Assembly (NCBI GenBank): GCA_043822785.1
Contig: JBDRBN010000046.1
Span: 1-59,945 of the forward strand
Length of the DNA stretch: 59,945 bases
Direction: 5' to 3'
DNA from: Pseudomonadota bacterium
GTDB lineage: Bacteria > UBA10199 > 2-02-FULL-44-16 > JAAZCA01
The position numbers were made by a program, and so were the translations under genes. Shown here piece after piece: positions 5,520 to 30,928 of the stretch. The stretch's first letter is position 1; each line of letters starts with the position of its first letter. The notes under the pieces were generated by a model. The model saw only the letters and a program-made list of their open reading frames with translations, had not been told where the DNA came from and searched no databases.

Positions 5520-8002
5520 TTGCCGTTATAATGGCAGGAGGCGTTGGCTCAAGGCTAAGGCCGCTTACAAGTTATTCGCCAAAGCCCATGTTGCCGATAC
5601 TGAACAAGCCGATCATGGAATACGTGCTTCATCCACTGGTTCGGGCAAAAATAACGCGCGCAATGGTAACGCTGTATTACAGGCCGAACGATATCAGAGA
5701 TTATTTCACTGACGGCAGCGACTGGGACATCGATCTGAAATACTCTTTGGAAAAGCAGCCTCTTGGGACAGCTGGTTCTGTTAAGCTCGCGCTCTCAAAA
5801 CTGAAAGTGAACGAGCCTATTTGTATAATAAGCGGAGACGGGCTTACTGATTTTGATCTTGGCAAAGCTTTTGAAGAGCACAAAAGAAAAAAAGCTGACG
5901 TGAGCATCCTGCTTAAGAAAGTGGAAAATCCGCTGGAGTATGGCGTTGTGGTGACTGATGAGGATGGGTGGATCGATAAATTTATGGAAAAGCCCGGACG
6001 CGGTCAGGTGGTGAGCGATCTGGTGAACACGGGCATATATATCATCGAACCAGACATAATCTCCAAGATTCCCGATGACGTTGAATACGACTTTGCAAAG
6101 GATCTGTTTCCAAAGCTCCTAAAGGCAAAGACCAAAATGTTGGGAATAACGATGGATGGATACTGGGCAGATATCGGCGATCTTAAACAATATGTTCAAA
6201 CTCAATGCGACATACTCGAAGGAAAAGTTAAGCTCAGAATTCCCGGACGAAAGCTGGCGCCTGGCGTTTGGGTTGGAGAACATGTGGAGCTTAGTGGCGA
6301 GGAGGTGCTGCGGTCTCCGGTCTTTGTAGGCGAAAACTGTCGCTTGGGTAAGGATTGTAAAATCGGACCGCATGCGATTATCGGCGATAACGTTGTCGTG
6401 GATCCTAGGGCTAGCGTACAGCACTCAGTCATCATGTCGAACTGTTTTTTGGGCGAAGGCGTTCAGGTTGATGGATCGATACTCGGCAGAAATGTCATCG
6501 CTGAAACAGGAAGCTCGATCTATGAGGGTGCGGTTGTCAGCGACAACTGCCTTCTGGGCCAGCATTCCACTATCCAGGCAGGCGTGTTCATCTGGCCTGA
6601 TAAGCGGGTTGAGGCTGAGGCTGTGGTGACAAACGACATGGTCTGGAGCACATCGCATCAGGCGCAGGTGTTTGCCGGCAACGTTGTAAAGGGTTTGGCC
6701 AACATACGCATCACTCCTCAGTTTGTCATGCGACTGGCCATGGCTTTTGGCGCGGTTTTGGGCCGCAATAAGCTTGTGGTAGTAAGCCGCGATGGTTCGC
6801 GCGCATCTAGGCTCATGAACCGGGTTTTGACCTCAGGGCTTATGGCCATGGGCGTTAATGTGATTGATCTCTATGGAATGCCTGCTTCGATCTGCAGCTA
6901 TGCGGTGAGGTCGCTTGGCGCAAATGGGGCCTGCCATGTTCGCATAGGCGATGAGCATTCTGAGATGATCCAGATGGAGTTTTTTGACAGCAACGGATAT
7001 CCGCTGGGCCGCGATATTCAGCGCAAGATCGAGGCGTTCTATACTCGGGGCGATTTTCCCCGGGTGAAAGTCGAAGATGTAGGCTTGATGCACTATCGGC
7101 CCGGCTTTATTTCAAATTACGTTGCAGAGGCCCTTCGCCACATCGATCGCGATCTCATTGCGTCCAAGAACTTTTCGGTTGTCATCGACTATGCATATGG
7201 AACCACCTGGCAGATCATCCCGCATCTGTTAGAGCCTATCGGTTGTGAGCTCATAACTCTGAGGCCATATACAGAAGGCGGCCCACGGCGCGTTGCGAAT
7301 AGCGAGGCAGCGCTGGAGCGCCTGGTCAGGATGACGCGCCTGAATGCGGATTTGGGCGTGCTCATGAGCCCAAACGGCGACAGCTTCTCTCTTGTGGATG
7401 AGCTTGGCAATGTTCACTCTCCAGAAATGGTGAGATTGCTTCTCGTTAACAGAAAGCTTGCTGTCAGCAGGGATTCGATAGTCGTGCCTGTCAACTGGTC
7501 AGATGCTTATCCTGTTTTGATTCAAAGAAGCGGCGGAAAGGTTGTTCCGGCCAAGGCGGATTGGGGGGATATAATAAGAACCGCTGCAGGCGAGATCGAT
7601 ACGCCTGGCGAATGGGTCACCTTTCATCACTTCTACCATGAGATAGATGCATCATTTGCGTTTATGAAGATTTTGGAGCTGATAGCCAGCACGAAGATGC
7701 CCCTTTCCAAACTAGTAGCAGAACTTCCGTCAGTGCGAATTTATACTGTACGCGTAAGCTGCCCGTGGGAGAAGATGGGTACGGTTCTCAGGCGGTTTGC
7801 AGAGAGTTATCCGCCGACCCAGGTGGAAACACACGACGGCATAAAGATACGGACAGCAGAAGCGTGGTGTCTTGTGCTGCCCGACGCTTCATCTCCAAAA
7901 CTGATCATCTCCGCTGAAGGCACGACCGACGACAAGAGAGACAGAATGCTCACATCCTGTCGGGAACAGATTGAGAAAATGATCGCTGAGGAGGCCGGAT
8001 GA
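5516..8002 (+). CDS. sugar-1-phosphate (mannose-1-P-like) nucleotidyltransferase fused to hexapeptide repeats and PGM/PMM-like domains
   Basis: AVIMAGGVGSRLRPLT..PKPM, EKQPLGTAGS, FMEKP, YWADIG; left-handed beta-helix; PGM-like C-terminus; RBS AGGAGG before ATG 5516. Confidence 0.85.
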   Translation: MIAVIMAGGVGSRLRPLTSYSPKPMLPILNKPIMEYVLHPLVRAKITRAMVTLYYRPNDIRDYFTDGSDWDIDLKYSLEKQPLGTAGSVKLALSKLKVNEPICIISGDGLTDFDLGKAFEEHKRKKADVSILLKKVENPLEYGVVVTDEDGWIDKFMEKPGRGQVVSDLVNTGIYIIEPDIISKIPDDVEYDFAKDLFPKLLKAKTKMLGITMDGYWADIGDLKQYVQTQCDILEGKVKLRIPGRKLAPGVWVGEHVELSGEEVLRSPVFVGENCRLGKDCKIGPHAIIGDNVVVDPRASVQHSVIMSNCFLGEGVQVDGSILGRNVIAETGSSIYEGAVVSDNCLLGQHSTIQAGVFIWPDKRVEAEAVVTNDMVWSTSHQAQVFAGNVVKGLANIRITPQFVMRLAMAFGAVLGRNKLVVVSRDGSRASRLMNRVLTSGLMAMGVNVIDLYGMPASICSYAVRSLGANGACHVRIGDEHSEMIQMEFFDSNGYPLGRDIQRKIEAFYTRGDFPRVKVEDVGLMHYRPGFISNYVAEALRHIDRDLIASKNFSVVIDYAYGTTWQIIPHLLEPIGCELITLRPYTEGGPRRVANSEAALERLVRMTRLNADLGVLMSPNGDSFSLVDELGNVHSPEMVRLLLVNRKLAVSRDSIVVPVNWSDAYPVLIQRSGGKVVPAKADWGDIIRTAAGEIDTPGEWVTFHHFYHEIDASFAFMKILELIASTKMPLSKLVAELPSVRIYTVRVSCPWEKMGTVLRRFAESYPPTQVETHDGIKIRTAEAWCLVLPDASSPKLIISAEGTTDDKRDRMLTSCREQIEKMIAEEAG

Positions 8003-8934
8003 TCGAAGTCATAAGCCTTGGCGAGATGATAGTTGATATGATCGCTGAAGGTGAAAGGCAGTTTTGCGCGCATCCTGGAGGCGCGCCCGCAAACGTGGCC
8101 ATGGATTGTGTGCGGCTTGGGCATTCCGCGGCATTCATAGGCAAGCGCGGAAATGATGCGTTTGGCAACATGCTGAATCAGACGCTGGAGCAAAAGGGGG
8201 TTGATGCCACAGGTTTCACCTCCACGGACGAGGCAAACACGGGGTTGGCATTTGTCTTCAGAAAAGAAGCAGGAGAGCCCAGTTTTTTCTTTTATCGCAA
8301 CCCAGGTGCGGATGAACTTTTGGATCCAGAAGATATTCCATCAGCCTTGTTCGATGGGCCAAAGTGGTTTCACTTTGGCTCTATCTCCCTTTATCACGAT
8401 AGATCAAGAGCCGCTACAGAACATGCCTGCAAGCTAGCTAAGGATAATAATTTGATTGTCTCATACGATCCAAACCTCAGGCCGCACCTTTTGCGCGAGC
8501 GGAAAGGCGCGCTGGATGCGGCGCGCAATGCTGCCCGCTACGCTGATGTGATCAAGCTCGGTGAAAAAGAGGCCCTTCTGATAACAGGCGAATCAGACGA
8601 GAAAGATGCTGTGAAGAGTTTGTTCAAATCCGGCATAAAGATGATCGCCATCACGCGCGGCTCAAAAGGCTCATCTCTCATCCTACCGCACGCCAGGGCG
8701 GATGCGTTTCCTCCCAAGGTCAGTCCGGTCGATACGACCGGCGCTGGCGATGCGTTTACGGCTGCGCTCATCTGCGGAATGCTTGAAGGTGACGTTTTCA
8801 GTAACGATGATATTGCTTCTCTGGATGATAAGAGGTTATCAGCAGTGCTTGAATTTGCATCGGCAGTTTCAGCCAAAAGCACTGAGGCTGAGGGTGCCAC
8901 TGCGGGCGTGAAAAGATGGGGGGAGAGACCATGA
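7999..8934 (+). CDS. PfkB-family fructokinase
   Basis: PGGAPANVA, FYRNPGAD, SYDPNLR, VDTTGAGDAF. Confidence 0.9.
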   Translation: MIEVISLGEMIVDMIAEGERQFCAHPGGAPANVAMDCVRLGHSAAFIGKRGNDAFGNMLNQTLEQKGVDATGFTSTDEANTGLAFVFRKEAGEPSFFFYRNPGADELLDPEDIPSALFDGPKWFHFGSISLYHDRSRAATEHACKLAKDNNLIVSYDPNLRPHLLRERKGALDAARNAARYADVIKLGEKEALLITGESDEKDAVKSLFKSGIKMIAITRGSKGSSLILPHARADAFPPKVSPVDTTGAGDAFTAALICGMLEGDVFSNDDIASLDDKRLSAVLEFASAVSAKSTEAEGATAGVKRWGERP

Positions 8935-10175
8935 GAATCTGTTTTATAAATCCCCACAGCGATCCTTTGGCAAAGCCGGGCGAGCCGGATTCCGGAGGGC
9001 AATGCATCGTTGAAAGTCATCTGATGAAATATTTTGTGAAGATCTCGCCGGATGTCACCATCGACAGCTTCACGCGCCTGTGGGGCGATAAGCCAGAAGT
9101 GGAACAGATAGCAGATCGTGCGCGGGTGATACGCGTTTTGTGCAACGGACAGGACTTTATTCCAAAGGAGATGCTCTGGGAAACCCTTCCCGAATTTGTA
9201 GATAAGATGCTCATTCGATGGGCAGATGAGAAACGCCAGTATGATATCTATCACGCGCATTATGCTGATGGCGGGAAGGCTGCCCTCATTACCATGTCAA
9301 AAAAGAGCGCGCCTCTGGTTTTTACCGCGCATTCTTTGGGGAAACTAAAACAGATGGTCCTTCCGGACGAGAAGGCATATCGTTATTCAGTTCGCATTCC
9401 AGCTGAACAGGAGACTTTGGCTAAAGCATCTAGGATCATTGCGCTAAACAAAGTCGAGATTGGCCATTATAAGGAGCTTTACGGCATTACGCCTCCAAAG
9501 GTTAGGGTAATTCCAAACGGCGTTGATACTGAATATTATAAACCAGCGCCCGACCGAGATGAGATCAGAAAGAAGCTTGGATGGGAAGGAAAGCGGGTGG
9601 TGTTCACAATAGGCAGAATCGATGCTAGAAAAGGATTTAACCTGCTAGCTTCAGCCGCTGCGGATGTGATGCATCAGTTAAAAGAGGCGGGAAAGGAAGT
9701 ATTATTTCTGCTTCCTGGCGCAGGCAAGGGTCGCACAAAGGCTGAAAGGGTAGTTGTGGATGAGATGGCGGAATTATTGGGCGAGGCTGTGTCATCCACC
9801 GCATTTTTTCCACGCCTTTCTGATGAGGAACTTTTGGAGTATTATCGTGCAGCAGATCTTTTCGTGTGTCCTTCGCCGTATGAACCCTTTGGGCTTGTGG
9901 TGATAGAGGCCATGGCATGTGGCGTGCCCGTGGTATCGTTTAATAGCGGTGGGCCGGCAGATATAATTTCACATGGCGTAGATGGGGAGCTTGCAGATAT
10001 TGTGGAAGGGCCCAAATCATTGGCCAAGGCCATGGTGAAGGTGTTGATCGATGAAGATAGAAGGCTTAAGATGGGTAAAATGGGCAGAAAAAAAGTTGAG
10101 GCTCATTATTCATGGGATGCAGTGGCGCGTAGTACTCTGGAGCTATATCAGGAGGTAATTGATGCGCGTAGTTGA
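8931..10175 (+). CDS. GT4 glycosyltransferase, sucrose-phosphate synthase / mannosylfructose-phosphate synthase-like
   Basis: PDSGGQ, FIPKEMLW, HAHYADGG, FTAHSLGKLK, GRIDARKG, EPFGLVVIEAMACG; no fused HAD domain. Confidence 0.8.
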   Translation: MRICFINPHSDPLAKPGEPDSGGQCIVESHLMKYFVKISPDVTIDSFTRLWGDKPEVEQIADRARVIRVLCNGQDFIPKEMLWETLPEFVDKMLIRWADEKRQYDIYHAHYADGGKAALITMSKKSAPLVFTAHSLGKLKQMVLPDEKAYRYSVRIPAEQETLAKASRIIALNKVEIGHYKELYGITPPKVRVIPNGVDTEYYKPAPDRDEIRKKLGWEGKRVVFTIGRIDARKGFNLLASAAADVMHQLKEAGKEVLFLLPGAGKGRTKAERVVVDEMAELLGEAVSSTAFFPRLSDEELLEYYRAADLFVCPSPYEPFGLVVIEAMACGVPVVSFNSGGPADIISHGVDGELADIVEGPKSLAKAMVKVLIDEDRRLKMGKMGRKKVEAHYSWDAVARSTLELYQEVIDARS

Positions 10176-12558
10176 TTCAAGGACGTGGTGCGATCAATCC
10201 GCAGACGTATTGCATGCTTTTTTAGAACACTTGGCCCAAGTGCGAGATGGAATACTGTGGAGAGGAGAAATTGAGGATGCGTTCAAACGATTTCTTCATA
10301 CATATGACCACTCGCAGCGCAGGTTGATTAAGGGAACGATGGGTCAGAAGATATCGCATGTGCAGGAAGCGGTTGTTGGGGAGAAGCAAATATACTTTTT
10401 GCTCAGACCCATCGCAGGCATTCGTGAAGCCATTTCGATCTCACGGCATGATGATCGCATAAATTCAGTCGATATAGAACATTACCTTGCAGCTAGGGAG
10501 ACAGCTGCAACGGGCTCTCCGAGCAGCGAGGAGTTTTCATTTAGCATAGATTTTTCTCCTTTTCGTATCTTTCATCCGGATAAACCCGATCCAACTCTTA
10601 TAGGTAAAGGTCTTGATAGGCTTGCGCATATCTTTATTTCAAAAATTCATGAAAATCCACACTGGGCGCTTAGCAAGCTGTTGGAGTTTCTATCGTTCAG
10701 AAATCACGAAGGTGAACCGCTGCTGTTTAGCAGACCCATGGATTTGGTTTCGCTAAACCGCGCAGTAGAACGAGCGTTGGATCTGACAAGGCTTTATCGC
10801 GATCCACAGGCCAAAGCTGAGCTTTTATCCGAACTAAACCTCCTTGGCCTTGCCAAGGGATGGGGTGATACTGCAGAACGGATGGAAGAAACCTTTACGC
10901 TGTTGGCTCACGTTCTTCATGATCCAAAGGATGAAGACGTGCGCAAGCTTTTGTGTCGATTGCCCCTCATACAAAAAGTTCTGCTCATCACCATTCACGG
11001 GTGGTTTGCACAAGAAGGCGTGCTGGGTCGGCCGGATACTGGTGGACAGGTTGTATATGCTTTAAATCAGGCCCGTGCGCTAGAAAGGCATTTGAAAAAT
11101 CTTTGGAAAGCTGCTGGTGTGGATGCTAACCCAAAGATCATAATCCTGTCTCGTCTTATTCCAGAATCTGACGGCACATCGGTAAATGTTTCCAGAGAAC
11201 CAATTTACGGAACGGATAACAGCTTCATCATGAGGGTGCCATTTAAAAATGAAGATGGTGAAGTGGTGCCGCACTGGATATCTAGGTTTAAGGTGTGGCC
11301 ATACCTCAACCGATTTACAAAAGATTCATACTATCAGCTGATGACAGAATACGAAGGGCTGCCAGATCTGATAATCGGAAATTATTCAGACGGAAACTTT
11401 GTGGCTACAGCGCTTGGACGGGAATGGGGAGTGATTACCGGAGTAATCGCTCATGCGCTTGAAAAGAACAAATACCTGTTTAGCGATGTGAGATGGAAGG
11501 AGATGGATAAAGATTATCACTTCTCCGTGCACTATTTGAATGATATGTTGAGCAGCAACTCTGCGGATTTTATCATCACCAGCACATATCAGGAAATAGC
11601 TGGCACGCATGAGGAGTCAGGGCAGTATGAATCATATGGCGTGTTCACTCTTCCTCAAAACTATCGTGTTCAATCTGGCATCGACATCTATACGCCTCAG
11701 TTTGTAATCAACCCGCCAGGTTATGACGATAGCATCTGTTTTCCGTACGATTTAAAAGATCGCCGTGATGTGGCGCTTGTCAAAGAAGTTGAGAATATGT
11801 GTTTTGGCTCGGATGGAGTTGAAGGCGCGGTGGGGTGCCTTGAGGATCCAAATAAATCGCCTATCTTTTCGATGGCGCGATTGGATAAGATTAAGAATAT
11901 TGCGGGATTGGTTAAAATATTTGCTCAAAGCGATGAGCTTAGAGAACGTGCAAATCTGATAATTGTCGGCGGTGTTACATCTGAAAAACAATCCTCTGAT
12001 TTAGAAGAACAGCATCAGATACGCGCGATACATCAATTGATAAAACGCCATAATTTGAACAGACAGATCAGATGGCTTCCAGGAGAAACCAATTCTGCAA
12101 GAGCTGCTGAATTCTATCGAGTGATGGCCGATCGCGAGGGCGTATTTGTTCAACCTGCGCTTTATGAGGCTTTTGGCTTGACCGTGATTGAATCCATGGC
12201 GTGTGGCTTGCCGGTGATCGCTACGCGGTATGGTGGGCCATCAGAGTCGATACAGGATGGAGTGACCGGTTTGTTAATTGACCCACGTAAATCTGCATCT
12301 GTCACTCGTGCAATAATGCGCCTCATATCGCCTGACGGTGGTACTGCTACCAAGCTGTGGCACCGCATGAGCGAGGACGGAATGAGGCGCGCCCGGGATG
12401 TATTTTCATGGGATCGTCATGTGGGAAAGGCAGTAGAAGCCGCTGGCCTATATGGCTTTTGGGACAGGCTCTTCAGCAGAAGCAGGGCGGTTCAACTAAA
12501 CTATGTGGATGCGATCCATTACCTTTTACTCCTACCAAGGATCAAGGAGAGCGCATAA
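10162..12558 (+). CDS. sucrose synthase
   Basis: HGWFAQEGVLGRPDTGGQVVY, HWISRF.VWPYL, IGNYSDGN, IAHALEK.KY, STYQEIAG, MARLDKIKN, QPALYEAFGLTVIE. Confidence 0.92.
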   Translation: MRVVDSRTWCDQSADVLHAFLEHLAQVRDGILWRGEIEDAFKRFLHTYDHSQRRLIKGTMGQKISHVQEAVVGEKQIYFLLRPIAGIREAISISRHDDRINSVDIEHYLAARETAATGSPSSEEFSFSIDFSPFRIFHPDKPDPTLIGKGLDRLAHIFISKIHENPHWALSKLLEFLSFRNHEGEPLLFSRPMDLVSLNRAVERALDLTRLYRDPQAKAELLSELNLLGLAKGWGDTAERMEETFTLLAHVLHDPKDEDVRKLLCRLPLIQKVLLITIHGWFAQEGVLGRPDTGGQVVYALNQARALERHLKNLWKAAGVDANPKIIILSRLIPESDGTSVNVSREPIYGTDNSFIMRVPFKNEDGEVVPHWISRFKVWPYLNRFTKDSYYQLMTEYEGLPDLIIGNYSDGNFVATALGREWGVITGVIAHALEKNKYLFSDVRWKEMDKDYHFSVHYLNDMLSSNSADFIITSTYQEIAGTHEESGQYESYGVFTLPQNYRVQSGIDIYTPQFVINPPGYDDSICFPYDLKDRRDVALVKEVENMCFGSDGVEGAVGCLEDPNKSPIFSMARLDKIKNIAGLVKIFAQSDELRERANLIIVGGVTSEKQSSDLEEQHQIRAIHQLIKRHNLNRQIRWLPGETNSARAAEFYRVMADREGVFVQPALYEAFGLTVIESMACGLPVIATRYGGPSESIQDGVTGLLIDPRKSASVTRAIMRLISPDGGTATKLWHRMSEDGMRRARDVFSWDRHVGKAVEAAGLYGFWDRLFSRSRAVQLNYVDAIHYLLLLPRIKESA

Positions 12559-12559
12559 G

Positions 12560-14062
12560 ATGAAAAGAGGCAGCGGCATACTCCTTCATATAACTTCACT
12601 TCCTTCGCAGTATGGAATTGGCGATCTGGGCCCGCAGGCTTATGAGTTTGTAGATTTTCTCTCATCTGCTGGGCAGAGCTATTGGCAGCTCCTGCCGCTT
12701 AATCCAACCGATCAGATATGTGGCAACTCTCCCTACAGCAGCGCATCGGCATTTGCTGGTAACACACTTCTCATTAGCCCCGAGCTTCTTGTGAATGATG
12801 GGCTGCTTACTGAGGATGATTTAAGTTCAAAGCCAAATTTTTCAGAAGGGCGTTGTGATTACTCTTCTGTCATTCCTTACAAGGAATCTCTGTTGAAGCG
12901 AGCTTATGAGCGGTTTGTTTCTAAAAAGGGCAACGATGAAAAATATCGGGAATTTTGCAATGAACATGCCTATTGGCTGGATGATTATGCCCTTTTTGCC
13001 GTAATCAAGAAAAGGATGGATGAAAGGGTGTTTAGCGATTGGCCACAAGAGCTTCGCGATAGGGAACCCTCTTGCATGGAGGAGCTGCGAAAAGAGAAGT
13101 CAGATGAAATCGAACAGGTGAAATTCTTCCAATATCTTTTCATGAAGCAGTGGTTTTTGCTCAAAGACTATTGTGATGTAAAGGGAGTTAAGCTCATAGG
13201 CGATATTCCTATATACGTAAATTATGATAGCGTGGATGTATGGACTAACTCTGACATATTTAAGCTTGATCCTATGACCAAGAAGCCATCTGTAGTTGCA
13301 GGCGTGCCCCCTGATTACTTTAGCAAGACAGGCCAGCTATGGGGAAATCCTGTATACAGATGGGATTATCTAAAGGAAACAGGCTTTGAGTGGTGGATGA
13401 AAAGGCTAGGGCACATCCTTCATCTCTTTCACATGACGCGCATAGACCATTTTCGCGGCTTTGTGGATTTTTGGGAAGTGCCTGCATCGCACAAGACGGC
13501 CATGGAGGGAAACTGGGTTAAGGCGCCAGCCATAGAGTTCTTCACAACTCTTATAAAGAAGTTTCCTGAGTCACCCATCCTTGCCGAGGATTTAGGCATC
13601 ATCACCGACGAGGTGCGGGAAGTGATAAAGCAGTTTGGATTCCCAGGCATGCGTATTCTCATGTTCGCATTTAGCGAGGACAAGCCCGATCATCCCTATT
13701 TGCCACAAAACTTCATTCGCAACTGCGTCGTGTATACTGGCACCCATGACAACAACACAGCGCGTGGCTGGTTCAAAAACGAGATATCTGCAGCTGATAA
13801 GAAGAGGCTTGAAGCATGTGTAGGACATGCTGTTTCAGCAGATACTGTAAACCGGGAGCTCATCAAACTTGCCATGGAATCGATTGTAGATACCGTGCTA
13901 ATACCCATGCAGGATGTGTTAGGATTGGGCGAAGAGGCGCGCATGAACGTGCCAGCAAAGACCCAGGGTAACTGGTCATGGCGCGTGTTAAAATCTCAGC
14001 TTACCCCTGAGGTTTCGTCAGGGCTTAAAGCCCTTGCGCAAAAGACAGAGCGTATATCCTAA
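12560..14062 (+). CDS. malQ: 4-alpha-glucanotransferase (GH77)
   Basis: GILLHITSLP, WQLLPLNP, GDIPIYV, AGVPPDYFS.TGQLWGNP, RIDHFRG, AEDLG, YTGTHDN. Confidence 0.95.
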   Translation: MKRGSGILLHITSLPSQYGIGDLGPQAYEFVDFLSSAGQSYWQLLPLNPTDQICGNSPYSSASAFAGNTLLISPELLVNDGLLTEDDLSSKPNFSEGRCDYSSVIPYKESLLKRAYERFVSKKGNDEKYREFCNEHAYWLDDYALFAVIKKRMDERVFSDWPQELRDREPSCMEELRKEKSDEIEQVKFFQYLFMKQWFLLKDYCDVKGVKLIGDIPIYVNYDSVDVWTNSDIFKLDPMTKKPSVVAGVPPDYFSKTGQLWGNPVYRWDYLKETGFEWWMKRLGHILHLFHMTRIDHFRGFVDFWEVPASHKTAMEGNWVKAPAIEFFTTLIKKFPESPILAEDLGIITDEVREVIKQFGFPGMRILMFAFSEDKPDHPYLPQNFIRNCVVYTGTHDNNTARGWFKNEISAADKKRLEACVGHAVSADTVNRELIKLAMESIVDTVLIPMQDVLGLGEEARMNVPAKTQGNWSWRVLKSQLTPEVSSGLKALAQKTERIS

Positions 14063-14148: not shown

Positions 14149-15549
14149 ATGACTAAATTCAAGGTTCTTGTCGTCGATGACGACAAAGAGATGGCGGATC
14201 TCGTCGCCACTATTTTTCAGAGGGATGGCTATCGTGCTGAAGCCGTCAACAGCGGCAAAGGCGCATTTGAATACCTGTCACGAGAGAGGCCGGATTTGAT
14301 AATCCTGGATCTCCTGATGCCAGAGATGGACGGCTATGAAGTCTGCAAGAGGTTAAAGTCCTGCAAAGCCACATCCATGATTCCGGTCTTAATGCTTACT
14401 GTCGATGATTCTCAAAAGCACAGGATTGCGGCGTTCGACACCGGAATAGACGACTATATCGCCAAGCCCTTTAATGCTGAAGAGCTTCTGGCAAGGGCCA
14501 AATCCCATTTGAGACGTACGCATGAGCTGAAGCGGGCTCAAAAAAAACAGCGCAAGCCAAAAATCAAGAATATACTGGTGACAGGTGGGGCGGGCTTTAT
14601 CGGCTCGCATTTGGCAAGGGCGCTCGCCAAGGCAAAATACAATGTCCATATCATCGATGATTTTTCCACCGGCAGGATGGAGAATATCGACGATATTTTG
14701 AAAAAGAAAAACGTGCATCTGACAACCGGCTCCATTACCGATGAGGTCATCTTGAGTAAGGCAATAGAACAGGCTGACATGGTCTATCATCTGGCTGCTA
14801 CCGTAGGGGTGAAGCATGTGGTTGATAGCGCTTTGGATACTATCGTTTACGACACGTTAGGCACATTGCTGGTATTGAAATATGCATCTTCAAAAGGCAT
14901 AAAAGTCCTTCTCACCTCCACGTCAGAGGTTTACGGAAAAACGAAAGAGATTCCGTTCAGAGAGGATAGTGATATCATCATAGGCCCACCACATATCCAC
15001 AGGTGGAGTTACGCCTGCTCGAAACTTTTGGATGAATTTCTGTCCATCGCATATTTTCGGGAAAGAAACCTCCAGGTGATCATCGTCAGGCTGTTTAACG
15101 TGGTAGGGCCGGGTCAAGTGGGCCATTACGGCATGGTGCTTCCCCGTTTTTTCAAGAGCGCATACCGCAATAAACCGATACATATCTACGGCACAGGGAA
15201 ACAGAGCAGATGCTTCACGTACATCGATGATGCGATCACGTTGCTCATGCGCATTGCCAAGTCCGAAAAGGCAAGCGGCGAGGTCATCAACCTAGGCAGC
15301 GCCGAAGAAATTTCCATCCTGGAGCTGGCAAATAAAGTCAAAAAAATCACAGGGAGTTCGTCTAAGCTCGTATTTGAAGACTACAACAAATTCTATGGGA
15401 GATTCTTTCAGGACGTAAAAAGGCGGGTGCCAGAGACGACAAGGTTAAAAAAGATAGTCGGGGCCATGCCCATGATTGGCCTCGATGAAATTTTAAGGCG
15501 GATGAAACGCTTCTTCGATGAGCATCCTGAAGAATTGCAGAGGATCTGA
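14149..15549 (+). CDS. receiver domain fused to NAD-dependent nucleotide-sugar epimerase/decarboxylase (extended SDR)
   Basis: Intact REC (VVDDD, LDLLMP, MLT, AKPF), basic linker, then TGGAGFIG, STSEVYG, RWSYACSK, RLFNVVGP. Confidence 0.88.
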   Translation: MTKFKVLVVDDDKEMADLVATIFQRDGYRAEAVNSGKGAFEYLSRERPDLIILDLLMPEMDGYEVCKRLKSCKATSMIPVLMLTVDDSQKHRIAAFDTGIDDYIAKPFNAEELLARAKSHLRRTHELKRAQKKQRKPKIKNILVTGGAGFIGSHLARALAKAKYNVHIIDDFSTGRMENIDDILKKKNVHLTTGSITDEVILSKAIEQADMVYHLAATVGVKHVVDSALDTIVYDTLGTLLVLKYASSKGIKVLLTSTSEVYGKTKEIPFREDSDIIIGPPHIHRWSYACSKLLDEFLSIAYFRERNLQVIIVRLFNVVGPGQVGHYGMVLPRFFKSAYRNKPIHIYGTGKQSRCFTYIDDAITLLMRIAKSEKASGEVINLGSAEEISILELANKVKKITGSSSKLVFEDYNKFYGRFFQDVKRRVPETTRLKKIVGAMPMIGLDEILRRMKRFFDEHPEELQRI

Positions 15550-15553
15550 ATAT

Positions 15554-16867
15554 ATGAAACTGTTAGAAAAAATCGCTTCAAAGAAAGCTACGGTGGGCAT
15601 AATCGGGCTTGGCTATGTGGGGTTGCCGACGATTGGTGATTTTCTTCAGGCTGGTTTCAGGGTGATCGGATTTGATGAGGATGTTTCCAGAGTCGAATCA
15701 CTCATGGCCGGCAAAAGCTACATAAAACATATCCACTCTTCGTTGATACAAAAATGGCTTGCCGGAAATAAATTTCATGCCACTGCGGAATTTGCAGAGT
15801 TGAGCGAGGTGGATGTGAAGATCATCTGTGTGCCCACTCCCATAAATGAAAACCAGGAGCCCGAACTATCGTGTATTTTAAATGCTGTAAGACAAATTGC
15901 CAAATACCTTCAAAAGGGACAGCTCATAATTCTCGAATCCACCACTTATCCAGGCACGACGGACGAAAATGTAAGAGCCATTCTTGAAGAGACGGGGCTC
16001 AAGGTGGGCAAAGACTATTATCTCGGCTATTCACCAGAGAGGCAGGATCCCAACAACACGGAATTCACGTCAAGGTCCATCCCAAAGATCGTTTCAGGAT
16101 ACACACAAGAGTGCTTTGGTGCGGTAATAGCTCTCTACGATGCGGTATCCATACCGACGGTACCGGTTTCCTCCACAAGAGTCGCGGAGGCTGCCAAGCT
16201 GCTCGAAAATATCTACAGGTCGGTGAACATCGCTTTAGTAAATGAATTGAAGATGCTCTTCGATAGAATGGAAATAGATATATGGGAGGTCATCGAAGCA
16301 GCCAAGACAAAGCCTTTCGGATTTCAGGCGTTCTATCCGGGGCCAGGGCTTGGGGGGCACTGCATTCCCGTGGATCCCTATTATCTTACCTGGAAGGCGC
16401 ATGAATACGATTTTCACACCGGCGTCATCGAGTCGGCAGGCGACGTCAATAAGGCAATGCCTCACTACATCGAGAAAAAAATATTCGAAGTTTTAAATGG
16501 ATTAGGGAAAGCGATCAAAGGATCAAAAATTATCATCTTGGGGATTGCATATAAGAAAGACATTGATGATCCCAGGGAGTCTCCTGCTTTTCCGATTATG
16601 GACCTCTTGCTGAAGAATGGTGCCAAAGTCAGCTATAACGATCCTTATATACCGGTCTCCAAGGGCAGCATACAATTCAGTCATATCAACATGCATTCAG
16701 TAAAGCTCACAGAAGAGATCATAACCGGCGCCGACCTGATTCTTTTGATCACCGATCATTCAGATTATGATTATGCCTTGATAGAGAGACATGCAAAATG
16801 CATCGTGGACACGAGAAATGCGTTCGAAAGGCAGGGTATCAGGAGCAAGAAGATATACAAGGCGTAA
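15554..16867 (+). CDS. UDP-N-acetylhexosamine 6-dehydrogenase (WecC/WbpO/TviB family)
   Basis: GLGYVGLP, ICVPTP, ESTTYPGTT, YSPER, KLLENIYR.VN, GPGLGGHCIPVDP, DPRESP. Confidence 0.9.
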   Translation: MKLLEKIASKKATVGIIGLGYVGLPTIGDFLQAGFRVIGFDEDVSRVESLMAGKSYIKHIHSSLIQKWLAGNKFHATAEFAELSEVDVKIICVPTPINENQEPELSCILNAVRQIAKYLQKGQLIILESTTYPGTTDENVRAILEETGLKVGKDYYLGYSPERQDPNNTEFTSRSIPKIVSGYTQECFGAVIALYDAVSIPTVPVSSTRVAEAAKLLENIYRSVNIALVNELKMLFDRMEIDIWEVIEAAKTKPFGFQAFYPGPGLGGHCIPVDPYYLTWKAHEYDFHTGVIESAGDVNKAMPHYIEKKIFEVLNGLGKAIKGSKIIILGIAYKKDIDDPRESPAFPIMDLLLKNGAKVSYNDPYIPVSKGSIQFSHINMHSVKLTEEIITGADLILLITDHSDYDYALIERHAKCIVDTRNAFERQGIRSKKIYKA

Positions 16868-16882
16868 AACCTGTTGGTTGAT

Positions 16883-17716
16883 ATGCGTTTAAAAAAAGTC
16901 GCAATTCTAGTCATCATACTGCTCTCCGGCATTCCCTTATCTGCCTCTGCGGCAGGCTCTGACGTTGAAGTCAGGAAGGACGTCCTAAAAGATCAGTCCA
17001 AGGCTGAAGAGTCTGCAAAAGAGCGGGTTTTTGTTTCATCTTTTTTTGACTATGGCACTGTCGAGCTCCCTTCTGGTGGACAGACGTGGACTGCGCTTAT
17101 GGCGAGGGCTGCCTATCTGCACAAGGGCCTTCAGCTGCCATATTTTGAGTTTTCCCGTTATTCACGGGGTGGAAATATCGATTACACTTATGACCTGGGC
17201 GGTTATTATAAGATCAAGCGCTGCTACCTTAATGTCGAAACCGGAGCCGGAAGCAGCGTCGATTACATATATAAATACAAATTCGTCGGCGAGTTTAGCC
17301 ATCCCATATACAAAACCTTCTATTTGAGGGAGAGGTACAAATTTCTGTTATATAATAATGAAAACTTTAACATTCTCGCTCTGGCTTTGGTATATTATTT
17401 CAAAAATCATTATATTGAAGCAGAATACGATGCTGATTTTTCAAGCAAAAGAGGATATGGACAATGGGGTTCTACAAGGTTCAATTTAAATCTGTCTAAA
17501 ACTGCTGATCTTTGGATAGGTGGGGTGGTAGGAGAGCGCATCTATGATGTTCTGGCGCTACCTTCTGCGGTAGATGCGTTTGGCTTTATCGTGTATGGTG
17601 GATTCCGATTCAGCCCGGTAAAAAATCTTTTTTTCAGCATGACGTTTTCATACGCTCAAGAGGACCCCAGCTTCAAGCACCGTTCCGTTGTCGCTGGCCT
17701 TTACTATAAATTCTGA
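16883..17716 (+). CDS. YaiO-like outer-membrane beta-barrel
   Basis: Signal peptide, Tyr/aromatic-rich alternating strands, C-terminal YYKF; next to a GT2 gene. Confidence 0.65.
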   Translation: MRLKKVAILVIILLSGIPLSASAAGSDVEVRKDVLKDQSKAEESAKERVFVSSFFDYGTVELPSGGQTWTALMARAAYLHKGLQLPYFEFSRYSRGGNIDYTYDLGGYYKIKRCYLNVETGAGSSVDYIYKYKFVGEFSHPIYKTFYLRERYKFLLYNNENFNILALALVYYFKNHYIEAEYDADFSSKRGYGQWGSTRFNLNLSKTADLWIGGVVGERIYDVLALPSAVDAFGFIVYGGFRFSPVKNLFFSMTFSYAQEDPSFKHRSVVAGLYYKF

Positions 17717-17725
17717 GGGGGATAT

Positions 17726-19174
17726 GTGAAAAATTCTTATGTCCTGGTTGTGGATGACGAGGTAGATGCAGCAGATCTGCTTGCCACATACCTGAGAAAA
17801 TTCGACCTTGATTCAGATGCCGTCTATGGTGGAACAAAGGCGCTTGAGCACATAAAAAAGAAAAAGCCTGATTTGATTATCTTAGATCTTCTTATGCCAG
17901 ATATGGATGGGTATGAATTTACAGCCAAACTTAACTCTGATGAATCCACTGCAAATATCCCGATTATAATGTTGACAGTTGATTCTACTCAAAAAGATAA
18001 GGTTAAGGCCTTGAAGATGGGGATAGATGATTATGTTATAAAGCCATATGATATAGATGAGTTGATTGCGCGAATCGAGGTTATATTAAAAAGATCAAAG
18101 GCTCATGAATTTACACCTCGTGAGGGAAGCGGTATTGGTATCAGGGAAAGAAAGCGTTTGGAGTTTTTGAAGTATTTGGAAGAAAAAAGAATCGAGAAAA
18201 TCGAGCCCGAATACAATCTTCAATCCAGAAGTGGATATTGTTATAAAGTTGCGGCCTACTTCTTTAATGCCAGCGATTTTTCAGAAATAGAAGAACTGAG
18301 GCATCTCACGGACAATCATGTCTTGAAACCGGAGTTCTTTGATAAGATACTGGTATGCCCCTTTTGTTTACATCACGATATTAATATTCGCGAGACTTGC
18401 CCTACCGATCACAGCGCTGACATTAGTGTCCACGATGCTTTTCATCACTATCGCTGCGGTTATGTTGGAACGGAAGATGAATATCTTCAAGGAATCAGGC
18501 ATGTTTGTCCCAAGTGTTTTCAAGAGCTCAGACACGTTGGCGTTGATTATGACAGGCCAGGTAAAATTTATGTTTCCAATACAACAAAAGAAAAATTCAC
18601 CGACCCTGTTGTCTACTGTCAGTGCAGGAACTGCAAAAAATCATTTAATGTAGATGATGCAGTGAGACAGAATATTTATGCCTATGTCGTAACGGACAGG
18701 GCCTTAGATGTGATTGCAGAAGGTGCGTTTACGCCGATCAGCCTCGAGCAGGAGTTGATAGACCAAGATGTAAACATATATAATTTGAAATATTTCAGGA
18801 CAAAGCTTGCTGAAGAAGTAGGCCGTTGCAAGACCTTTAATAGGCACCTTTCCATCATCCTTGTTGGAATCATCAATTTCGATTCTCTAATTTTAAACTA
18901 CGGTGAAGCCGTTACTAAACGGAAATTGCAGGAATTGGCGTTGATGCTCAAACAGAGCTTGCGTGAAGTTGATATTCCAGCTCGCTACGATAAAAACGAT
19001 TTTATAACTCTCCTTCCTGAAGCGGAAAGGGAAAAGGCTGAATCGATCATCCGCGAGCTTAAAGAAGAGATACCGGATGGGCTTGAGGTCGGTTTTAAGA
19101 TTGTCTCGTTCCCCAAAGATGCAGACACAGAGGCAAGCCTTATTGAAACACTGATAAATAGCAGATACATATAA
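17726..19174 (+). CDS. REC + Cys-rich zinc-ribbon output domain (TackOD1-like) + degenerate GGDEF
   Basis: REC; CPFC, HHYRCGY, CPKC..ELRHVGVDY, CRNC; REVD I-site then RYDKNDF in place of RYGGEEF. Confidence 0.8.
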   Translation: MKNSYVLVVDDEVDAADLLATYLRKFDLDSDAVYGGTKALEHIKKKKPDLIILDLLMPDMDGYEFTAKLNSDESTANIPIIMLTVDSTQKDKVKALKMGIDDYVIKPYDIDELIARIEVILKRSKAHEFTPREGSGIGIRERKRLEFLKYLEEKRIEKIEPEYNLQSRSGYCYKVAAYFFNASDFSEIEELRHLTDNHVLKPEFFDKILVCPFCLHHDINIRETCPTDHSADISVHDAFHHYRCGYVGTEDEYLQGIRHVCPKCFQELRHVGVDYDRPGKIYVSNTTKEKFTDPVVYCQCRNCKKSFNVDDAVRQNIYAYVVTDRALDVIAEGAFTPISLEQELIDQDVNIYNLKYFRTKLAEEVGRCKTFNRHLSIILVGIINFDSLILNYGEAVTKRKLQELALMLKQSLREVDIPARYDKNDFITLLPEAEREKAESIIRELKEEIPDGLEVGFKIVSFPKDADTEASLIETLINSRYI

Positions 19175-19176
19175 CA

Positions 19177-20631
19177 ATGAAGTTGAGAAATATTAAAATC
19201 GTAGATCTGGAATTACTGTCAGATTTTAGGGTAGGGGGGCCTTCCCAAAAGAAACTGTCAGCTGTGTCCGTGCTGGCAATTGTCCTGCTATCGCTTGCGA
19301 TATTATCTTACATATATTTTGTATTTTTTGAGAGAGATCTTTCTTGGTTGTTCATTTCAATAAATGAATACATAACGTACTGTATCGCAAATGTCATGGC
19401 CAGACCAACTTGGCAGAAGTTTCTCCTTTTTGCTCCTGCATTGATGTTTGATACAGTCAGATATTATCTCTCAAATACGATCATCTTTTTTATAGATATC
19501 TTTCGGGGAGGCGCATCTTATGAAGATGGAGGACCGGATTTCTATCCATTTGTGAGCATAATATTGCCTGCTTATAATGAAGGTCCAAGGATTAGGGGCA
19601 CCATCAATTCATTGCTTGCAAGCGATTATAAAAACTTCGAGATTATAGTCGTCGACGACTGTTCGACTGACACGACGCCAGCGATCTGCAGAGAATTTGA
19701 GCGGAGAGGGTTGATAAAGTTTATCCGCAAAGAAATCAGAGGTGGCAAGCCGTCGTCGCTGAATTATGGTTTTCAATTCACCAAAGGCGAACTCATTTTC
19801 CATTTTGATGCAGAGGTTGCAGTTCTTCCCAATACAATCAGCGAGGCTATAAAGCCGTTTAAAGATCCAAAGATCGGAGCTGTCAGCGGCAACCTCAAAG
19901 TGCACAATGATAAAAAAAGCCTCGCAAGTCGACTTCAAGCCGCTGAATATGGAATGGTAATCAGCCTGCAGAGGAGGTGGCTATCAGCCACACGTACGCT
20001 GCAGATAGCGTCGGGCGCATTTGGTGTGTTCAGGCGTGAGGCGATTGAGATGTCAAAGGGGGCTGATCCGGAGCATGGCGATGACTTGGACATTACTCTC
20101 AAAGTCAAAAAGCTCGGTTACAGGGTCGTTTTTGCGCCCAGGGCTATTGCATTAACCAACGTCCCCGAAAGTTTTTGGGTTCTATTCCAGCAAAGGGTGC
20201 GCTGGGACAAGTGCTATGTAAGGATAAGCTTTAGGAAACACAGAAACATCTCTGATATTTCTAAGTTTAGATTCGCAGATTTTCTTATATATGTGTTGGA
20301 TATCGTCTTTAACCTGTTATTGATGTTGGTCTTCCCAATTTACATTGTGCTCGTCGCAATTTTTGTGCCACATTTATTTTTGTTCATTATCGTCATTACC
20401 TATCTTTTCTACGTTATTATGAATATGTGGCAGTTTATTATGGTAGTTTTACTTTCAGATACGCGCTCAAGAGATTGGGTTTTTGTACTGTATGCACCGC
20501 TTTATTTTGCATATAGTGTTTTTTTGTGGGTAGCTAGAATGTTAGCATATACTATAGAGTTGTTGAGGCTAAAATTTATGAAGAGCGGGTTTTTGCCTGA
20601 AAAAATCTGGGATAGCATGCCCAAATACTAA
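19177..20631 (+). CDS. processive GT2 membrane synthase (PgaC/IcaA/YaiP-like)
   Basis: PAYNE, VDDCSTD, GGKPSSLN, FDAE, SGAFGVFRR, GDDLD, QQRVRW; N- and C-terminal TM helices. Confidence 0.9.
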   Translation: MKLRNIKIVDLELLSDFRVGGPSQKKLSAVSVLAIVLLSLAILSYIYFVFFERDLSWLFISINEYITYCIANVMARPTWQKFLLFAPALMFDTVRYYLSNTIIFFIDIFRGGASYEDGGPDFYPFVSIILPAYNEGPRIRGTINSLLASDYKNFEIIVVDDCSTDTTPAICREFERRGLIKFIRKEIRGGKPSSLNYGFQFTKGELIFHFDAEVAVLPNTISEAIKPFKDPKIGAVSGNLKVHNDKKSLASRLQAAEYGMVISLQRRWLSATRTLQIASGAFGVFRREAIEMSKGADPEHGDDLDITLKVKKLGYRVVFAPRAIALTNVPESFWVLFQQRVRWDKCYVRISFRKHRNISDISKFRFADFLIYVLDIVFNLLLMLVFPIYIVLVAIFVPHLFLFIIVITYLFYVIMNMWQFIMVVLLSDTRSRDWVFVLYAPLYFAYSVFLWVARMLAYTIELLRLKFMKSGFLPEKIWDSMPKY

Positions 20632-20637
20632 ATCTAA

Positions 20638-21342
20638 TTGAATGGAGGAATAATAATCATGATCGTAGACGACATATCAATGGCAAGACACAGGATGGGG
20701 GGAATTCTCACCATCATTCGTGAAAGTCTTTCCATGGTCTTAAGGGACATGGAGAGTCAAGGTAATACAGACCATGTAAAGGTGCTGAGCAGAGCGAATA
20801 AAAATGTCGATAGGCTGATTAGGCTAGCAAACAATTATTTTTTGATTCAGATGCTTGAGGCGGGAATAATCGACGTCAATTCGAAAGTTGACGATCTGAA
20901 TAAAGTTGCGCAAGTCATCTGTACCAATTTAAGCACAGTGGCTAGCCAAAAAGAGACTGAAATTGTATTGAAGTTGGATGATAAATTGCCGAAAACAAAA
21001 TTTGACTCCGAACTTATGGGTATAGTTATCGAAAACTTAGTAAGTAATGCAATTGATTTTACCGATAATGGCACGATTGTCGTCACAATATTTTCTGATG
21101 ATGAATCGATTCGGCTATCGGTAGCGGATACAGGTTGCGGTATTGACGAGAGCGAGGTCTCGAAACTCTTTCATCGATTTGAAAAATTATCGAACAATAG
21201 TGAAAGAGGAAGGACAGGCGACGGCATGGGGTTGGCTGTATCTAAAGAGATCATGACAAAGCTAGGTGGCGGGATCTGGTTAGAATCGACTTCGGACAAG
21301 GGCTCGACGTTCGTCATCTCTCTGCCCATCCGTGTCGATTGA
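20638..21342 (+). CDS. sensor-less histidine kinase with divergent H-box
   Basis: SMARHRMGGIL (H-box position), NLVSNAIDF, DTGCGI, GDGMGLA, KGSTF; true start may be ATG 20659. Confidence 0.75.
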   Translation: MNGGIIIMIVDDISMARHRMGGILTIIRESLSMVLRDMESQGNTDHVKVLSRANKNVDRLIRLANNYFLIQMLEAGIIDVNSKVDDLNKVAQVICTNLSTVASQKETEIVLKLDDKLPKTKFDSELMGIVIENLVSNAIDFTDNGTIVVTIFSDDESIRLSVADTGCGIDESEVSKLFHRFEKLSNNSERGRTGDGMGLAVSKEIMTKLGGGIWLESTSDKGSTFVISLPIRVD

Positions 21343-21906: not shown

Positions 21907-22272
21907 ATGCCATTTCCATTTGAGCATCTTGATGTATATAAGAAATCCTTAGATTTTGTTGAATCAATTGAGTCCTTGACCAACGACTTGAAGGGCAAAG
22001 CATCCTACAGCATTATTGACCAACTTTCACGCGCAGCATTATCGATTCCCTTGAACATCGCCGAGGGCAATGGCCGCTGGCATAAAGGTGAGAAACGACA
22101 ATTTTTCTGGATTGCACGTGGGTCTGTATTTGAATGCGTTCCGATTTTGCAAGTTCTTCACAGAAAATCTTTGATCAATGAACAGCAATATGCTGGTTAT
22201 TATGAACGGCTCGATATCATCGCCAAGATGCTCACGAATTTGGTGAAATCTGTGGAGGAGTTGAAAAGATGA
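21907..22272 (+). CDS. four-helix-bundle protein (23S rRNA IVS / bAvd-like family)
   Basis: FEHLDVYKKS, DQLSRAALSIPLNIAEGNGR, FFWIARGSVFEC. Confidence 0.92.
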   Translation: MPFPFEHLDVYKKSLDFVESIESLTNDLKGKASYSIIDQLSRAALSIPLNIAEGNGRWHKGEKRQFFWIARGSVFECVPILQVLHRKSLINEQQYAGYYERLDIIAKMLTNLVKSVEELKR

Positions 22273-30927: not shown

Positions 30928-30928
30928 G

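Follow-up and report, generated by a model that had tools for sequence, protein, structure and literature searches.

What do the six genes at positions 14,149 to 21,342 of contig JBDRBN010000046.1 (assembly GCA_043822785.1, from a Pseudomonadota bacterium) make, how are they controlled, and do they belong to a system that has already been described? We analyzed the stretch of 59,945 nucleotides that carries them, hereafter called the window. Synthase-dependent systems, of which only a few kinds are known, play a central part in biofilm biology; they include those for cellulose, poly-N-acetylglucosamine (PNAG), alginate, and Pel. An initial annotation of the locus had proposed a further system of this class, in which a uronic-acid-containing surface glycan is made under the control of both a phosphorelay and cyclic di-GMP (c-di-GMP).

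Our analysis points to a real, conserved, and apparently undescribed form of synthase-dependent polysaccharide secretion. The gene content, gene order, conservation, motifs, and folds of the operon are established. With moderate confidence, we conclude that the operon encodes a synthase-dependent machine that makes and exports a surface or extracellular polysaccharide, and that the family to which it belongs is defined by a glycosyltransferase family 2 (GT2) protein resembling PgaC together with a cytoplasmic protein that carries the domain TackOD1. The TackOD1 partner and a swappable outer-membrane exit are more notable features of this family than the c-di-GMP control and the uronic acid that were proposed earlier.

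A conserved six-gene operon

The six tightly spaced, co-oriented genes of the initial annotation were all recovered as open reading frames (ORFs) on the forward strand with the same coordinates. They are separated by 2 to 9 nt or nominally overlap, and the block is bounded by a gap of 87 nt on its 5' side and one of 565 nt on its 3' side. The ORFs are as follows.

14149..15549, + strand: ORF 1, REC receiver domain (residues 1-127) fused to an extended short-chain dehydrogenase/reductase (SDR), predicted UXS/ArnA type
15518..16867, + strand: ORF 2, nucleotide diphosphate (NDP)-sugar 6-dehydrogenase, probably of the UDP-N-acetylhexosamine (UDP-HexNAc) type (TviB/WecC/Cap5O-like)
16874..17716, + strand: ORF 3, YaiO-family outer-membrane beta-barrel with a signal peptide and a C-terminal Phe
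17726..19174, + strand: ORF 4, REC, then TackOD1 (residues ~139-335), then a degenerate GGDEF domain (residues ~343-482)
19177..20631, + strand: ORF 5, membrane-embedded GT2 of the processive synthase type
20638..21342, + strand: ORF 6, short soluble histidine kinase with a dimerization and histidine phosphotransfer (DHp) domain and a catalytic domain only

The profile matches for these ORFs include Response_reg (105 bits), Epimerase (177 bits), and GDP_Man_Dehyd (173 bits) in ORF 1; three UDPG_MGDP_dh domains and TIGR03026 (409 bits) in ORF 2; Response_reg (100 bits), TackOD1 (151 bits), and GGDEF (57 bits) in ORF 4; Glycos_transf_2 (117 bits) and Chitin_synth_2 (32 bits) in ORF 5; and HATPase_c (92 bits) in ORF 6, whose product has 234 residues. 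Most of the earlier gene assignments were upheld, namely the UDP-HexNAc dehydrogenase, the YaiO-like barrel, the degenerate GGDEF domain, the GT2 with a QxxRW motif, and the sensor-less kinase. The dehydrogenase probably starts at position 15554 (Met13) rather than 15518, because its relatives at two metagenomic loci, L202 and L203 (L numbers denote loci recovered in our searches), align from residue 13 only. With this start, the overlap with ORF 1 disappears. A promoter and terminator scan gave counts near shuffled expectation (24 versus 16.6 ± 4.2; 7 versus 6.9) and was uninformative on transcription units.

Three relatives of the block were recovered from metagenomes with an alignment that excludes REC (A2). 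Two of these (L202 and L203) are near-identical to one another and carry the same six genes in identical order, and the third (L204) is partial. Identity to the window across the whole block ranges from 62 to 86%, with values of 84% for the REC-SDR protein, 86% for the dehydrogenase, 85% for the barrel, 76-77% for the REC-TackOD1-GGDEF protein, 80-81% for the GT2, and 62-67% for the kinase, which is equally short and occupies the same position. The flanks differ between the window and these relatives. The limits of the block can be set at the REC-SDR gene and the kinase gene because the sucrose genes that lie upstream in the window are absent from the relatives. The six-gene arrangement is not due to chance and forms a unit. 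Across wider relatives, however, the six-gene set is not the unit: its only constant members are the TackOD1 protein and the GT2, and the other four (barrel, SDR, dehydrogenase, and kinase) behave as modules. Co-conservation of the whole set, on which the earlier proposal depended, thus holds for L202-L204 and gives way in the wider family to the TackOD1-GT2 pair.

The TackOD1 protein and the GT2 synthase form the invariant core

The segment of ORF 4 that had been described as a Zn-ribbon is indeed a multi-Cys domain, and it belongs to a named Pfam family, TackOD1 (PF18551), which it matches with 150.9 bits against a cut-off of 32. The invariant columns of the TackOD1 alignment include C211, C214, H241, C244, C261, C264, C300, and C303. 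The structural model of the ORF 4 protein (predicted local distance difference test [pLDDT] score 83) has three separate domains, and hydrophobic-segment analysis indicates a soluble protein. When the whole model was used in a fold search, the match list was filled by REC and GGDEF folds. A search of 5.8 billion proteins yielded 30 clusters at E ≤ 1e-10, of which 28 carry TackOD1 with GGDEF, and 26 of those also carry REC. The REC-TackOD1-GGDEF architecture is rare.

The GT2 protein encoded by the adjacent ORF has 484 amino acids (aa), carries the motifs DD, DxE/D, GDDLD, and QRVRW (the QxxRW position), and has hydrophobic segments at its N and C termini and no extra domain. Its catalytic and QxxRW columns are invariant in an alignment of 12 orthologues. 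The protein scores 170 bits against the PgaC_IcaA equivalog model TIGR03937 (cut-off 422.3) and 41 bits against the cellulose synthase model TIGR03030 (cut-off 699). PgaC is its nearest GT2 in Escherichia coli (26% identity over 352 aa, E 1e-34), and YaiP is 28% identical over 229 aa. A BLASTP comparison with E. coli NfrB aligned only a 41-residue stretch (E 0.002), and a C-terminal c-di-GMP-binding domain of the NfrB type was not found in the window protein. In a tree with E. coli PgaC, YaiP, and NfrB, a check that had been suggested at the outset, none of the three is close; their end branches span 5-9 changes per column, and their placement is weakly supported (60/78). A single-protein scan with the GT2 returned one close relative on a 1.7-kb contig along with distant GT2 proteins.

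The association between these two genes was assessed in three sets of loci. In a genome collection, a GT2 orthologue lies 3' of the TackOD1-GGDEF gene on the same strand in 13 of 16 loci, and the other 3 contigs end before this position. In the metagenome set, the GT2 gene follows in 7 of 13 loci, and the remaining 6 end too early. For a broad scan, an alignment restricted to TackOD1 (A9) served as the query. It detected 125 relatives; we retained the top 80, which include 76 new loci, and scored these 76 with hidden Markov models (HMMs) built from the alignments of this analysis. Among the 76, seven duplicate loci from the earlier sets, and closely related carriers do not count as independent cases. 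A GT2 gene is adjacent to the TackOD1 gene, directly downstream and on the same strand, in 61 of the 76 loci. Another 4 loci have it at a different position, 6 lack it, and in the other 5 the contig ends within 1.5 kb. Despite the repeated loci and kinship, the TackOD1-GT2 association is far beyond chance.

Carriers in the broad scan bear the record labels Alpha-, Beta-, Gamma-, and Zetaproteobacteria, Bacteroidota, Planctomycetota, KSB1, and Omnitrophota. Three of them (L269, L297, and L298) are labeled as named strains and not as metagenome-assembled genomes. The range of the TackOD1-GT2 class as a whole covers Alpha-, Beta-, Gamma-, and Zetaproteobacteria, Bacteroidota, Planctomycetota, Omnitrophota, Nitrospinota, Nitrospirota, and the lineage of the window.

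Domain content outside TackOD1 is less constant. Two members from the phylum of the window (L074 and L075) encode TackOD1-only proteins of 207 and 210 aa that have neither REC nor GGDEF, and in both loci this gene sits between a YaiO-like barrel gene and a GT2 gene. Among 19 partner proteins sampled with Pfam, all 19 carry TackOD1, GGDEF is detectable in 5, and a clear REC domain is present in 4. The invariant core of the family is therefore the TackOD1 protein plus the GT2, and not the GGDEF domain. The initial annotation had noted that no co-polymerase is visible, a statement that is weakened by the finding of a conserved GT2 partner, since the TackOD1 protein may fill a co-polymerase-like role beside the GT2. 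The function of TackOD1 has been called obscure in a paper that notes the domain in thaumarchaeal type IV pilus loci (PMC5847659), the sole paper mentioning TackOD1 that our literature searches found.

Two further observations concern these protein families. Some TackOD1 domains in bacterial metagenomes are fused to Mrr_cat, a restriction-endonuclease-like domain, in proteins of 455-483 aa. In the two of nine such loci that were scanned with Pfam (L215:8872-10323 and L219:5709-7076), the neighbors are a prepilin peptidase, an N_methyl pilin, a T2SSE ATPase, and PilM/PilN, which parallels the thaumarchaeal pilus association (PMC5847659). Separately, two of the distant matches to the GT2 (in L002 and L025) fall within ORFs of 1129-1152 aa that span the GT2 match.

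A proposed, interchangeable outer-membrane exit

The ORF 3 product passes the YaiO model TIGR04390 (37.1 bits versus a cut-off of 32). It scores 16.6 bits against the Pfam YaiO family (PF19413), below the cut-off of 23.9, which is exceeded by relatives in L181 (31.0 bits), L074 (25.4 bits), and L075 (24.4 bits). A YaiO domain is present in 27 of the 30 matches of the window barrel in a protein atlas. The barrel family is small, with 42 representatives at E ≤ 1e-30 among 1.84 billion proteins. An AlphaFold model of the barrel (pLDDT 86.4, predicted template modeling [pTM] score 0.81) has 14 strands.

The genes near the TackOD1-GT2 pair in relatives suggest a role for this barrel. Among the 61 broad-scan loci in which the pair is adjacent, HlyD is encoded directly upstream of the TackOD1 gene in 42. 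Downstream genes encode HlyD with a TolC-like outer-membrane channel (OEP) in 7 loci and HlyD only in 1; a YaiO-like barrel gene lies upstream in 2, and no export part was seen in 9. HlyD and OEP were confirmed with Pfam in L180, L182, L190, L239, L269, and L297. Over all sets, a YaiO-like barrel gene is located 5' of the TackOD1 gene in the window, L202, L203, L204 (partial), L178, L181, L213, L214, L074, and L075. Pfam searches did not find HlyD or OEP in the window operon. The outer-membrane part is thus swappable, with HlyD and a TolC-like protein in most relatives and a YaiO barrel in the window. We read the barrel as the probable outer-membrane exit for the polymer because it occupies the position of the known export module in relatives. 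The logic of a synthase-type GT2 combined with an outer-membrane barrel, which the initial annotation had put forward, is supported by these data.

Two side observations relate to export genes. The YaiO-like ORFs at L213:156-1373 and L214:5965-7182 encode about 405 aa, compared to 280 aa in the window, and so include an extra part. The window also carries an apparent tripartite efflux set on the reverse strand (27998-32203) that comprises a MacB-type ABC transporter, an HlyD adaptor, and an OEP channel. This set is probably unrelated to the operon, though it shows that the genome encodes TolC-like parts.

Predicted precursor sugar

The ORF 2 dehydrogenase matches equivalog models for UDP-N-acetylmannosamine (UDP-ManNAc) dehydrogenase (262 bits), TviB (221 bits), and WecC (220 bits), all under cut-off. 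Among Protein Data Bank (PDB) entries, it scores highest against Cap5O (212 bits), a dehydrogenase yielding the uronic acid UDP-ManNAcA (211 bits), and one for N-acetylgalactosaminuronic acid (GalNAcA; 209 bits), versus 95-144 bits for UDP-glucose dehydrogenases. By this ranking, its substrate is probably a UDP-HexNAc.

The partner of this dehydrogenase, the SDR domain of ORF 1, had been labeled an epimerase. Its best PDB match is human UXS1, a UDP-glucuronate decarboxylase (163 bits), followed by a PelX-like C4-epimerase (125), GalE (114), UDP-glucuronic acid (UDP-GlcA) 4-epimerase (111), and ArnA (98 bits), such that UXS1 leads every epimerase by at least 38 bits. Both the SDR and UXS1 carry STSEVYG and a YxxxK motif (YACSK in the window), and STSEVYGK is invariant in all six locus-linked SDR orthologues. 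The Glu of this Ser/Thr-Ser-Glu triad separates the UXS/ArnA decarboxylases from epimerases. Other SDRs encoded beside other dehydrogenases in the genomes of relatives carry either SSSSVYG, which is of the epimerase type, or the canonical ASTSEVYGDP. Therefore, the SDR is likelier a decarboxylase-type (UXS/ArnA-like) enzyme than a plain epimerase, its catalysis being predicted from these motifs. A decarboxylated sugar likewise appears likelier than a uronic acid as the final precursor. The uronic acid of the earlier proposal would more likely be an intermediate, because the SDR resembles UXS and ArnA in its invariant STSEVYGK motif and its best PDB match.

A pathway of this kind has been described in Bacillus cereus, where, according to PMC5078965, the enzymes UGlcNAcDH and UXNAcS convert UDP-N-acetylglucosamine (UDP-GlcNAc) to its uronic acid UDP-GlcNAcA and then to the pentose derivative UDP-XylNAc. 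By analogy, the simplest route for the window would be UDP-GlcNAc to UDP-GlcNAcA to a UDP-2-acetamido-pentose. The window enzymes resemble this pair in that a probable UDP-HexNAc 6-dehydrogenase accompanies a UXS-like putative decarboxylase, and they differ in the N-terminal REC domain of the SDR.

The REC-SDR fusion is also present in L182, L202, and L203. At L180:4969-6339, REC and SDR lie in one frame with a single in-frame stop between them, and the relatives are fused; this may reflect a gene that has split, read-through of the stop, or an error in the sequence. In two relatives of the HlyD type, a CofD/YvcK-like protein (PF01933, ~270 bits) is encoded 5' of the REC-SDR gene (L180:3602-4972 and L182:6852-8192), and it may be a further regulator linked to nucleotide sugars.

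A candidate phosphorelay

The two REC domains of the operon are 48.7% identical, are reciprocal best matches within the genome, and both keep the phospho-acceptor residues (DD...D...T...K). The kinase has no sensor domain and no hydrophobic segment. Its His18 is invariant and aligned with the phospho-accepting His of HisKA in four relatives (alignment A5), and it also retains the N, G1, F, and G2 boxes. Orthologous kinases with sensor domains (35-39% identity) are encoded upstream of the core in L180, L206, L207, L210, and L211, and an extra single REC also precedes the core at these five loci. Joint control of sugar supply and polymerization by a phosphorelay is plausible given these features, and the REC-SDR protein would then be the committed step of precursor supply that phosphorylation gates.

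Proposed mechanism and its weak points

These results are consistent with the following scheme. The substrate of the dehydrogenase would be a UDP-HexNAc, in the simplest case UDP-GlcNAc, which it would oxidize to the corresponding uronic acid, and the REC-fused UXS-like SDR would decarboxylate the product to a UDP-2-acetamido-pentose (e.g., UDP-XylNAc) or a 4-keto-pentose. The GT2 could then polymerize this pentose, alone or with UDP-GlcNAc, while threading the chain across the inner membrane. Passage through the outer membrane would be provided by the 14-strand YaiO-family barrel, which would replace the HlyD adaptor and TolC-like channel of most relatives. Finally, the sensor-less kinase may phosphorylate both REC domains, so that supply by REC-SDR and polymerization by the GT2 with its REC-TackOD1-degenerate GGDEF partner would be switched together.

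Several observations weigh against this reading. Each of these steps is one that we infer from sequence, and the identity of the sugar is read from motif and score ranking. The SDR falls below the equivalog cut-offs of PRK11908 (151 versus 294 bits) and ArnA (126 versus 777 bits), and the dehydrogenase reaches only 221 of the 592 bits set for TviB. Both genes are absent from the loci of many relatives, and therefore the building block may differ among members or come from elsewhere. The kinase has a degenerate H-box (ARHRMGG), and HisKA was not detected in it by Pfam. Foldseek matches of the barrel are generic, including OmpG (template modeling score by target [TMt] 0.69), Omp33, and the barrel of PgaA (by query [TMq] 0.59). 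The known exporters for Pga, Bcs, and alginate have 16-18 strands, and the window barrel is smaller at 14. Moreover, relatives of type C from the phylum of the window have no outer-membrane part nearby. At the level of the family, 6 of the 71 assessable broad-scan loci have no GT2 within reach of TackOD1. Nine TackOD1-Mrr fusions were recovered from metagenomes (L215-L223), and the two whose surroundings were inspected (L215 and L219) belong to type IV pilus loci; thus TackOD1 is not exclusive to synthases.

A broader proposal, which we advance only tentatively, is that TackOD1 is a dedicated cytoplasmic subunit for control or assembly in a large, unrecognized class of GT2 exopolysaccharide synthases, with a sister form that serves pili, and that the window version adds a phosphorelay, YaiO export, and a XylNAc-like polymer. 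The findings suggest a further widespread kind of synthase-dependent system that has a new conserved partner, TackOD1, and interchangeable outer-membrane exits. For two orphan families, TackOD1 and YaiO, they provide an initial functional hypothesis that can be tested; the broader proposal, if true, would give the first function for YaiO-family proteins. The control design is also unusual in that one receiver domain is joined in a single protein to a nucleotide-sugar enzyme and another to a synthase partner. Cultured carriers exist for such experiments, namely the Sphingobacterium, Paenimyroides, and Chryseobacterium strains behind L269, L297, and L298.

Alternative explanations

The degenerate GGDEF domain could act as a c-di-GMP receptor in the manner of PelD, BcsE, YdaK, or PssE, in which case binding at its inhibitory site (I-site) combined with phosphorylation would switch the synthase on. 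The GGDEF position of ORF 4 reads DKNDF and GG[DE]EF occurs in 0 of 24 relatives (alignment A1), which predicts that the domain is catalytically dead in all 24. The window protein keeps the I-site RxxD as REVD, five residues ahead of the dead motif, as well as an Arg 27 residues past that motif (+27), and PelD requires RxxD plus R402 according to PMC8461298. RxxD is also found in 7 of 8 deep-branching members of a deeper sample (A3), and the GGDEF fold is intact in the model, with matches to c-di-GMP-bound GcbC (Z 19.5) and FimX (Z 19.0). The host probably makes c-di-GMP, because its genome encodes two strong GGDEF proteins and has four PilZ matches. However, RxxD is present in just 8 of the 24 A1 relatives and +27 Arg in 4, whereas 11 have WxxD, including the relative that is 76% identical. 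The poor retention of RxxD and the loss or decay of the domain (missing in L074 and L075, detectable in just 5 of the 19 sampled partners) indicate that c-di-GMP cannot be the general control of the family as judged from these sequences. We regard a receptor role as somewhat unlikely for the window protein. Of the signaling originally proposed, the phosphorelay parts are present, and the link to c-di-GMP is what has lost ground.

The other two alternatives concern the product. If the SDR were a C4-epimerase like TviC, WbpP, or PelX, then the polymer could be a uronic acid homopolymer such as poly-GalNAcA, which would resemble the Vi antigen. The Pfam label Epimerase and the PelX-like, GalE, and UDP-GlcA 4-epimerase matches (125, 114, and 111 bits) are compatible with this view, as is the gene layout, since in the TviB/TviC arrangement a dehydrogenase also adjoins an SDR. 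The STSEVYG triad, versus SSSSVYG in epimerase-type neighbors, and the lead of UXS1 by 38 bits or more make this version unlikely, and a decarboxylase-type SDR is preferred. Still less probable, in our judgment, is that the GT2 modifies a lipid, protein, or cell-wall component and that the barrel is an unrelated porin encoded nearby. The best match of the GT2 among solved structures is the small archaeal mannosyltransferase 6yv7 (71 bits), with just 22 bits for BcsA; its atlas matches include a monoglucosyl-diacylglycerol synthase cluster, and the fold matches of the barrel are generic. Yet the GT2 has the QxxRW motif and the C-terminal membrane segments that processive synthases typically show, hyaluronan synthase aligns over residues 189-447, and the TackOD1-GT2 pair is flanked by export parts (HlyD/OEP or YaiO) at 52 of the 61 loci where the two genes are adjacent. 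These features argue for a polysaccharide synthase.

Comparison with known systems

The closest working analogues are Bgs and Xcs, which are tripartite systems of a GT2, a membrane-fusion protein (MFP), and TolC. As described in PMC13438883, the rhizobial BgsA/BgsB/TolC system for mixed-linkage glucan combines a GT2 with an HlyD-type MFP and a TolC-like channel, and the cyanobacterial Xcs cellulose system cited there (Maeda 2018) is likewise tripartite. The same gene set surrounds the TackOD1-GT2 pair in most relatives, whereas the window operon has a YaiO barrel instead of HlyD and OEP. In addition, BgsA and the Xcs synthase resemble cellulose synthases and contain c-di-GMP-binding parts of their own, whereas the window GT2 scores 22 bits against BcsA and has a separate TackOD1 partner.

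The absence of a match to Pga, Nfr, Pel, or Bcs, as noted initially, is borne out by equivalog scores, BLASTP, and missing partner genes. The Pga system is similar in that PgaC, the nearest E. coli GT2, has the same overall topology, and in that a small partner, cytoplasmic or in the membrane, and an outer-membrane barrel complete the system. However, the deacetylase PgaB, PgaD, and the tetratricopeptide repeat (TPR)-barrel protein PgaA are not among the Pfam matches of the scanned window ORFs, and the precursor genes of the window indicate a modified HexNAc. PelF, PelE, and PelG were likewise not found among these matches, and the window synthase is a GT2 versus the GT4 protein PelF. Neither PilZ nor BcsB was found by Pfam in the window operon.

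Catalytically dead GGDEF receptors encoded next to a polysaccharide synthase are reportedly exemplified by YdaK of Bacillus subtilis and PssE of Listeria. PelD and BcsE are degenerate-GGDEF receptors beside exopolysaccharide synthases according to PMC8461298. The window resembles these four cases in that a dead GGDEF gene adjoins the synthase gene. It differs because its GGDEF domain follows REC and TackOD1 in a soluble protein and is dispensable in many relatives.

A YaiO-family barrel gene also adjoins a GT2 gene in the uncharacterized E. coli cluster yaiO-yaiX-yaiP-yaiS. In strain K-12, the neighbors of yaiO, all on one strand, are an acyltransferase pseudogene (yaiX), yaiP (a GT2), and yaiS (a deacetylase). 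BLASTP revealed no similarity between the window barrel and E. coli YaiO, and E. coli has no TackOD1 (0 of 14 control genomes). YaiO appears in the literature mainly as a PCR marker or in passing mention.

Two other gene clusters were considered as candidates for the same system. The sfz/sfb stalk cluster of iron oxidizers was rejected on gene content as given in PMC8250860, in which Sfz1 is BcsB-like and Sfz2 is a GT2 fused to an N-domain like that of the type II secretion ATPase (T2SS-E). A Sinorhizobium cluster, uxs1-uxe-apsS-apsE-apsH, pairs UXS with exopolysaccharide genes (PMC12560781). PF18551 was not found in one Sinorhizobium genome (0 of 18 candidates); the positive control, run on the genome of the window, worked. 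This weakly excludes the aps cluster, as the result covers one strain that may lack the cluster. Judged by its sequences, the window system does not correspond to Pga, Nfr, Pel, Bcs, or sfz, and our literature searches found no published description of it.

Other features of the window

Directly upstream of the operon lies a co-oriented sucrose/glucan cluster (4734-14062) that is not common to L202 or L203. Its genes encode a sucrose-6F-phosphate phosphatase, an 852-aa nucleotidyltransferase-phosphoglucomutase fusion, a PfkB kinase, a GT4 resembling sucrose-phosphate synthase, a sucrose synthase, and a GH77 4-alpha-glucanotransferase. Immediately past the 565-nt gap on the other side, positions 21907-22272 encode a member of the 23S rRNA intervening-sequence protein family (PF05635, 99 bits). 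Farther upstream, a HipA-like kinase is encoded as two adjoining ORFs (2328-3562; Couple_hipA of 102 aa, then HipA_C of 309 aa), which may constitute a split or unusual HipBA-type toxin module.

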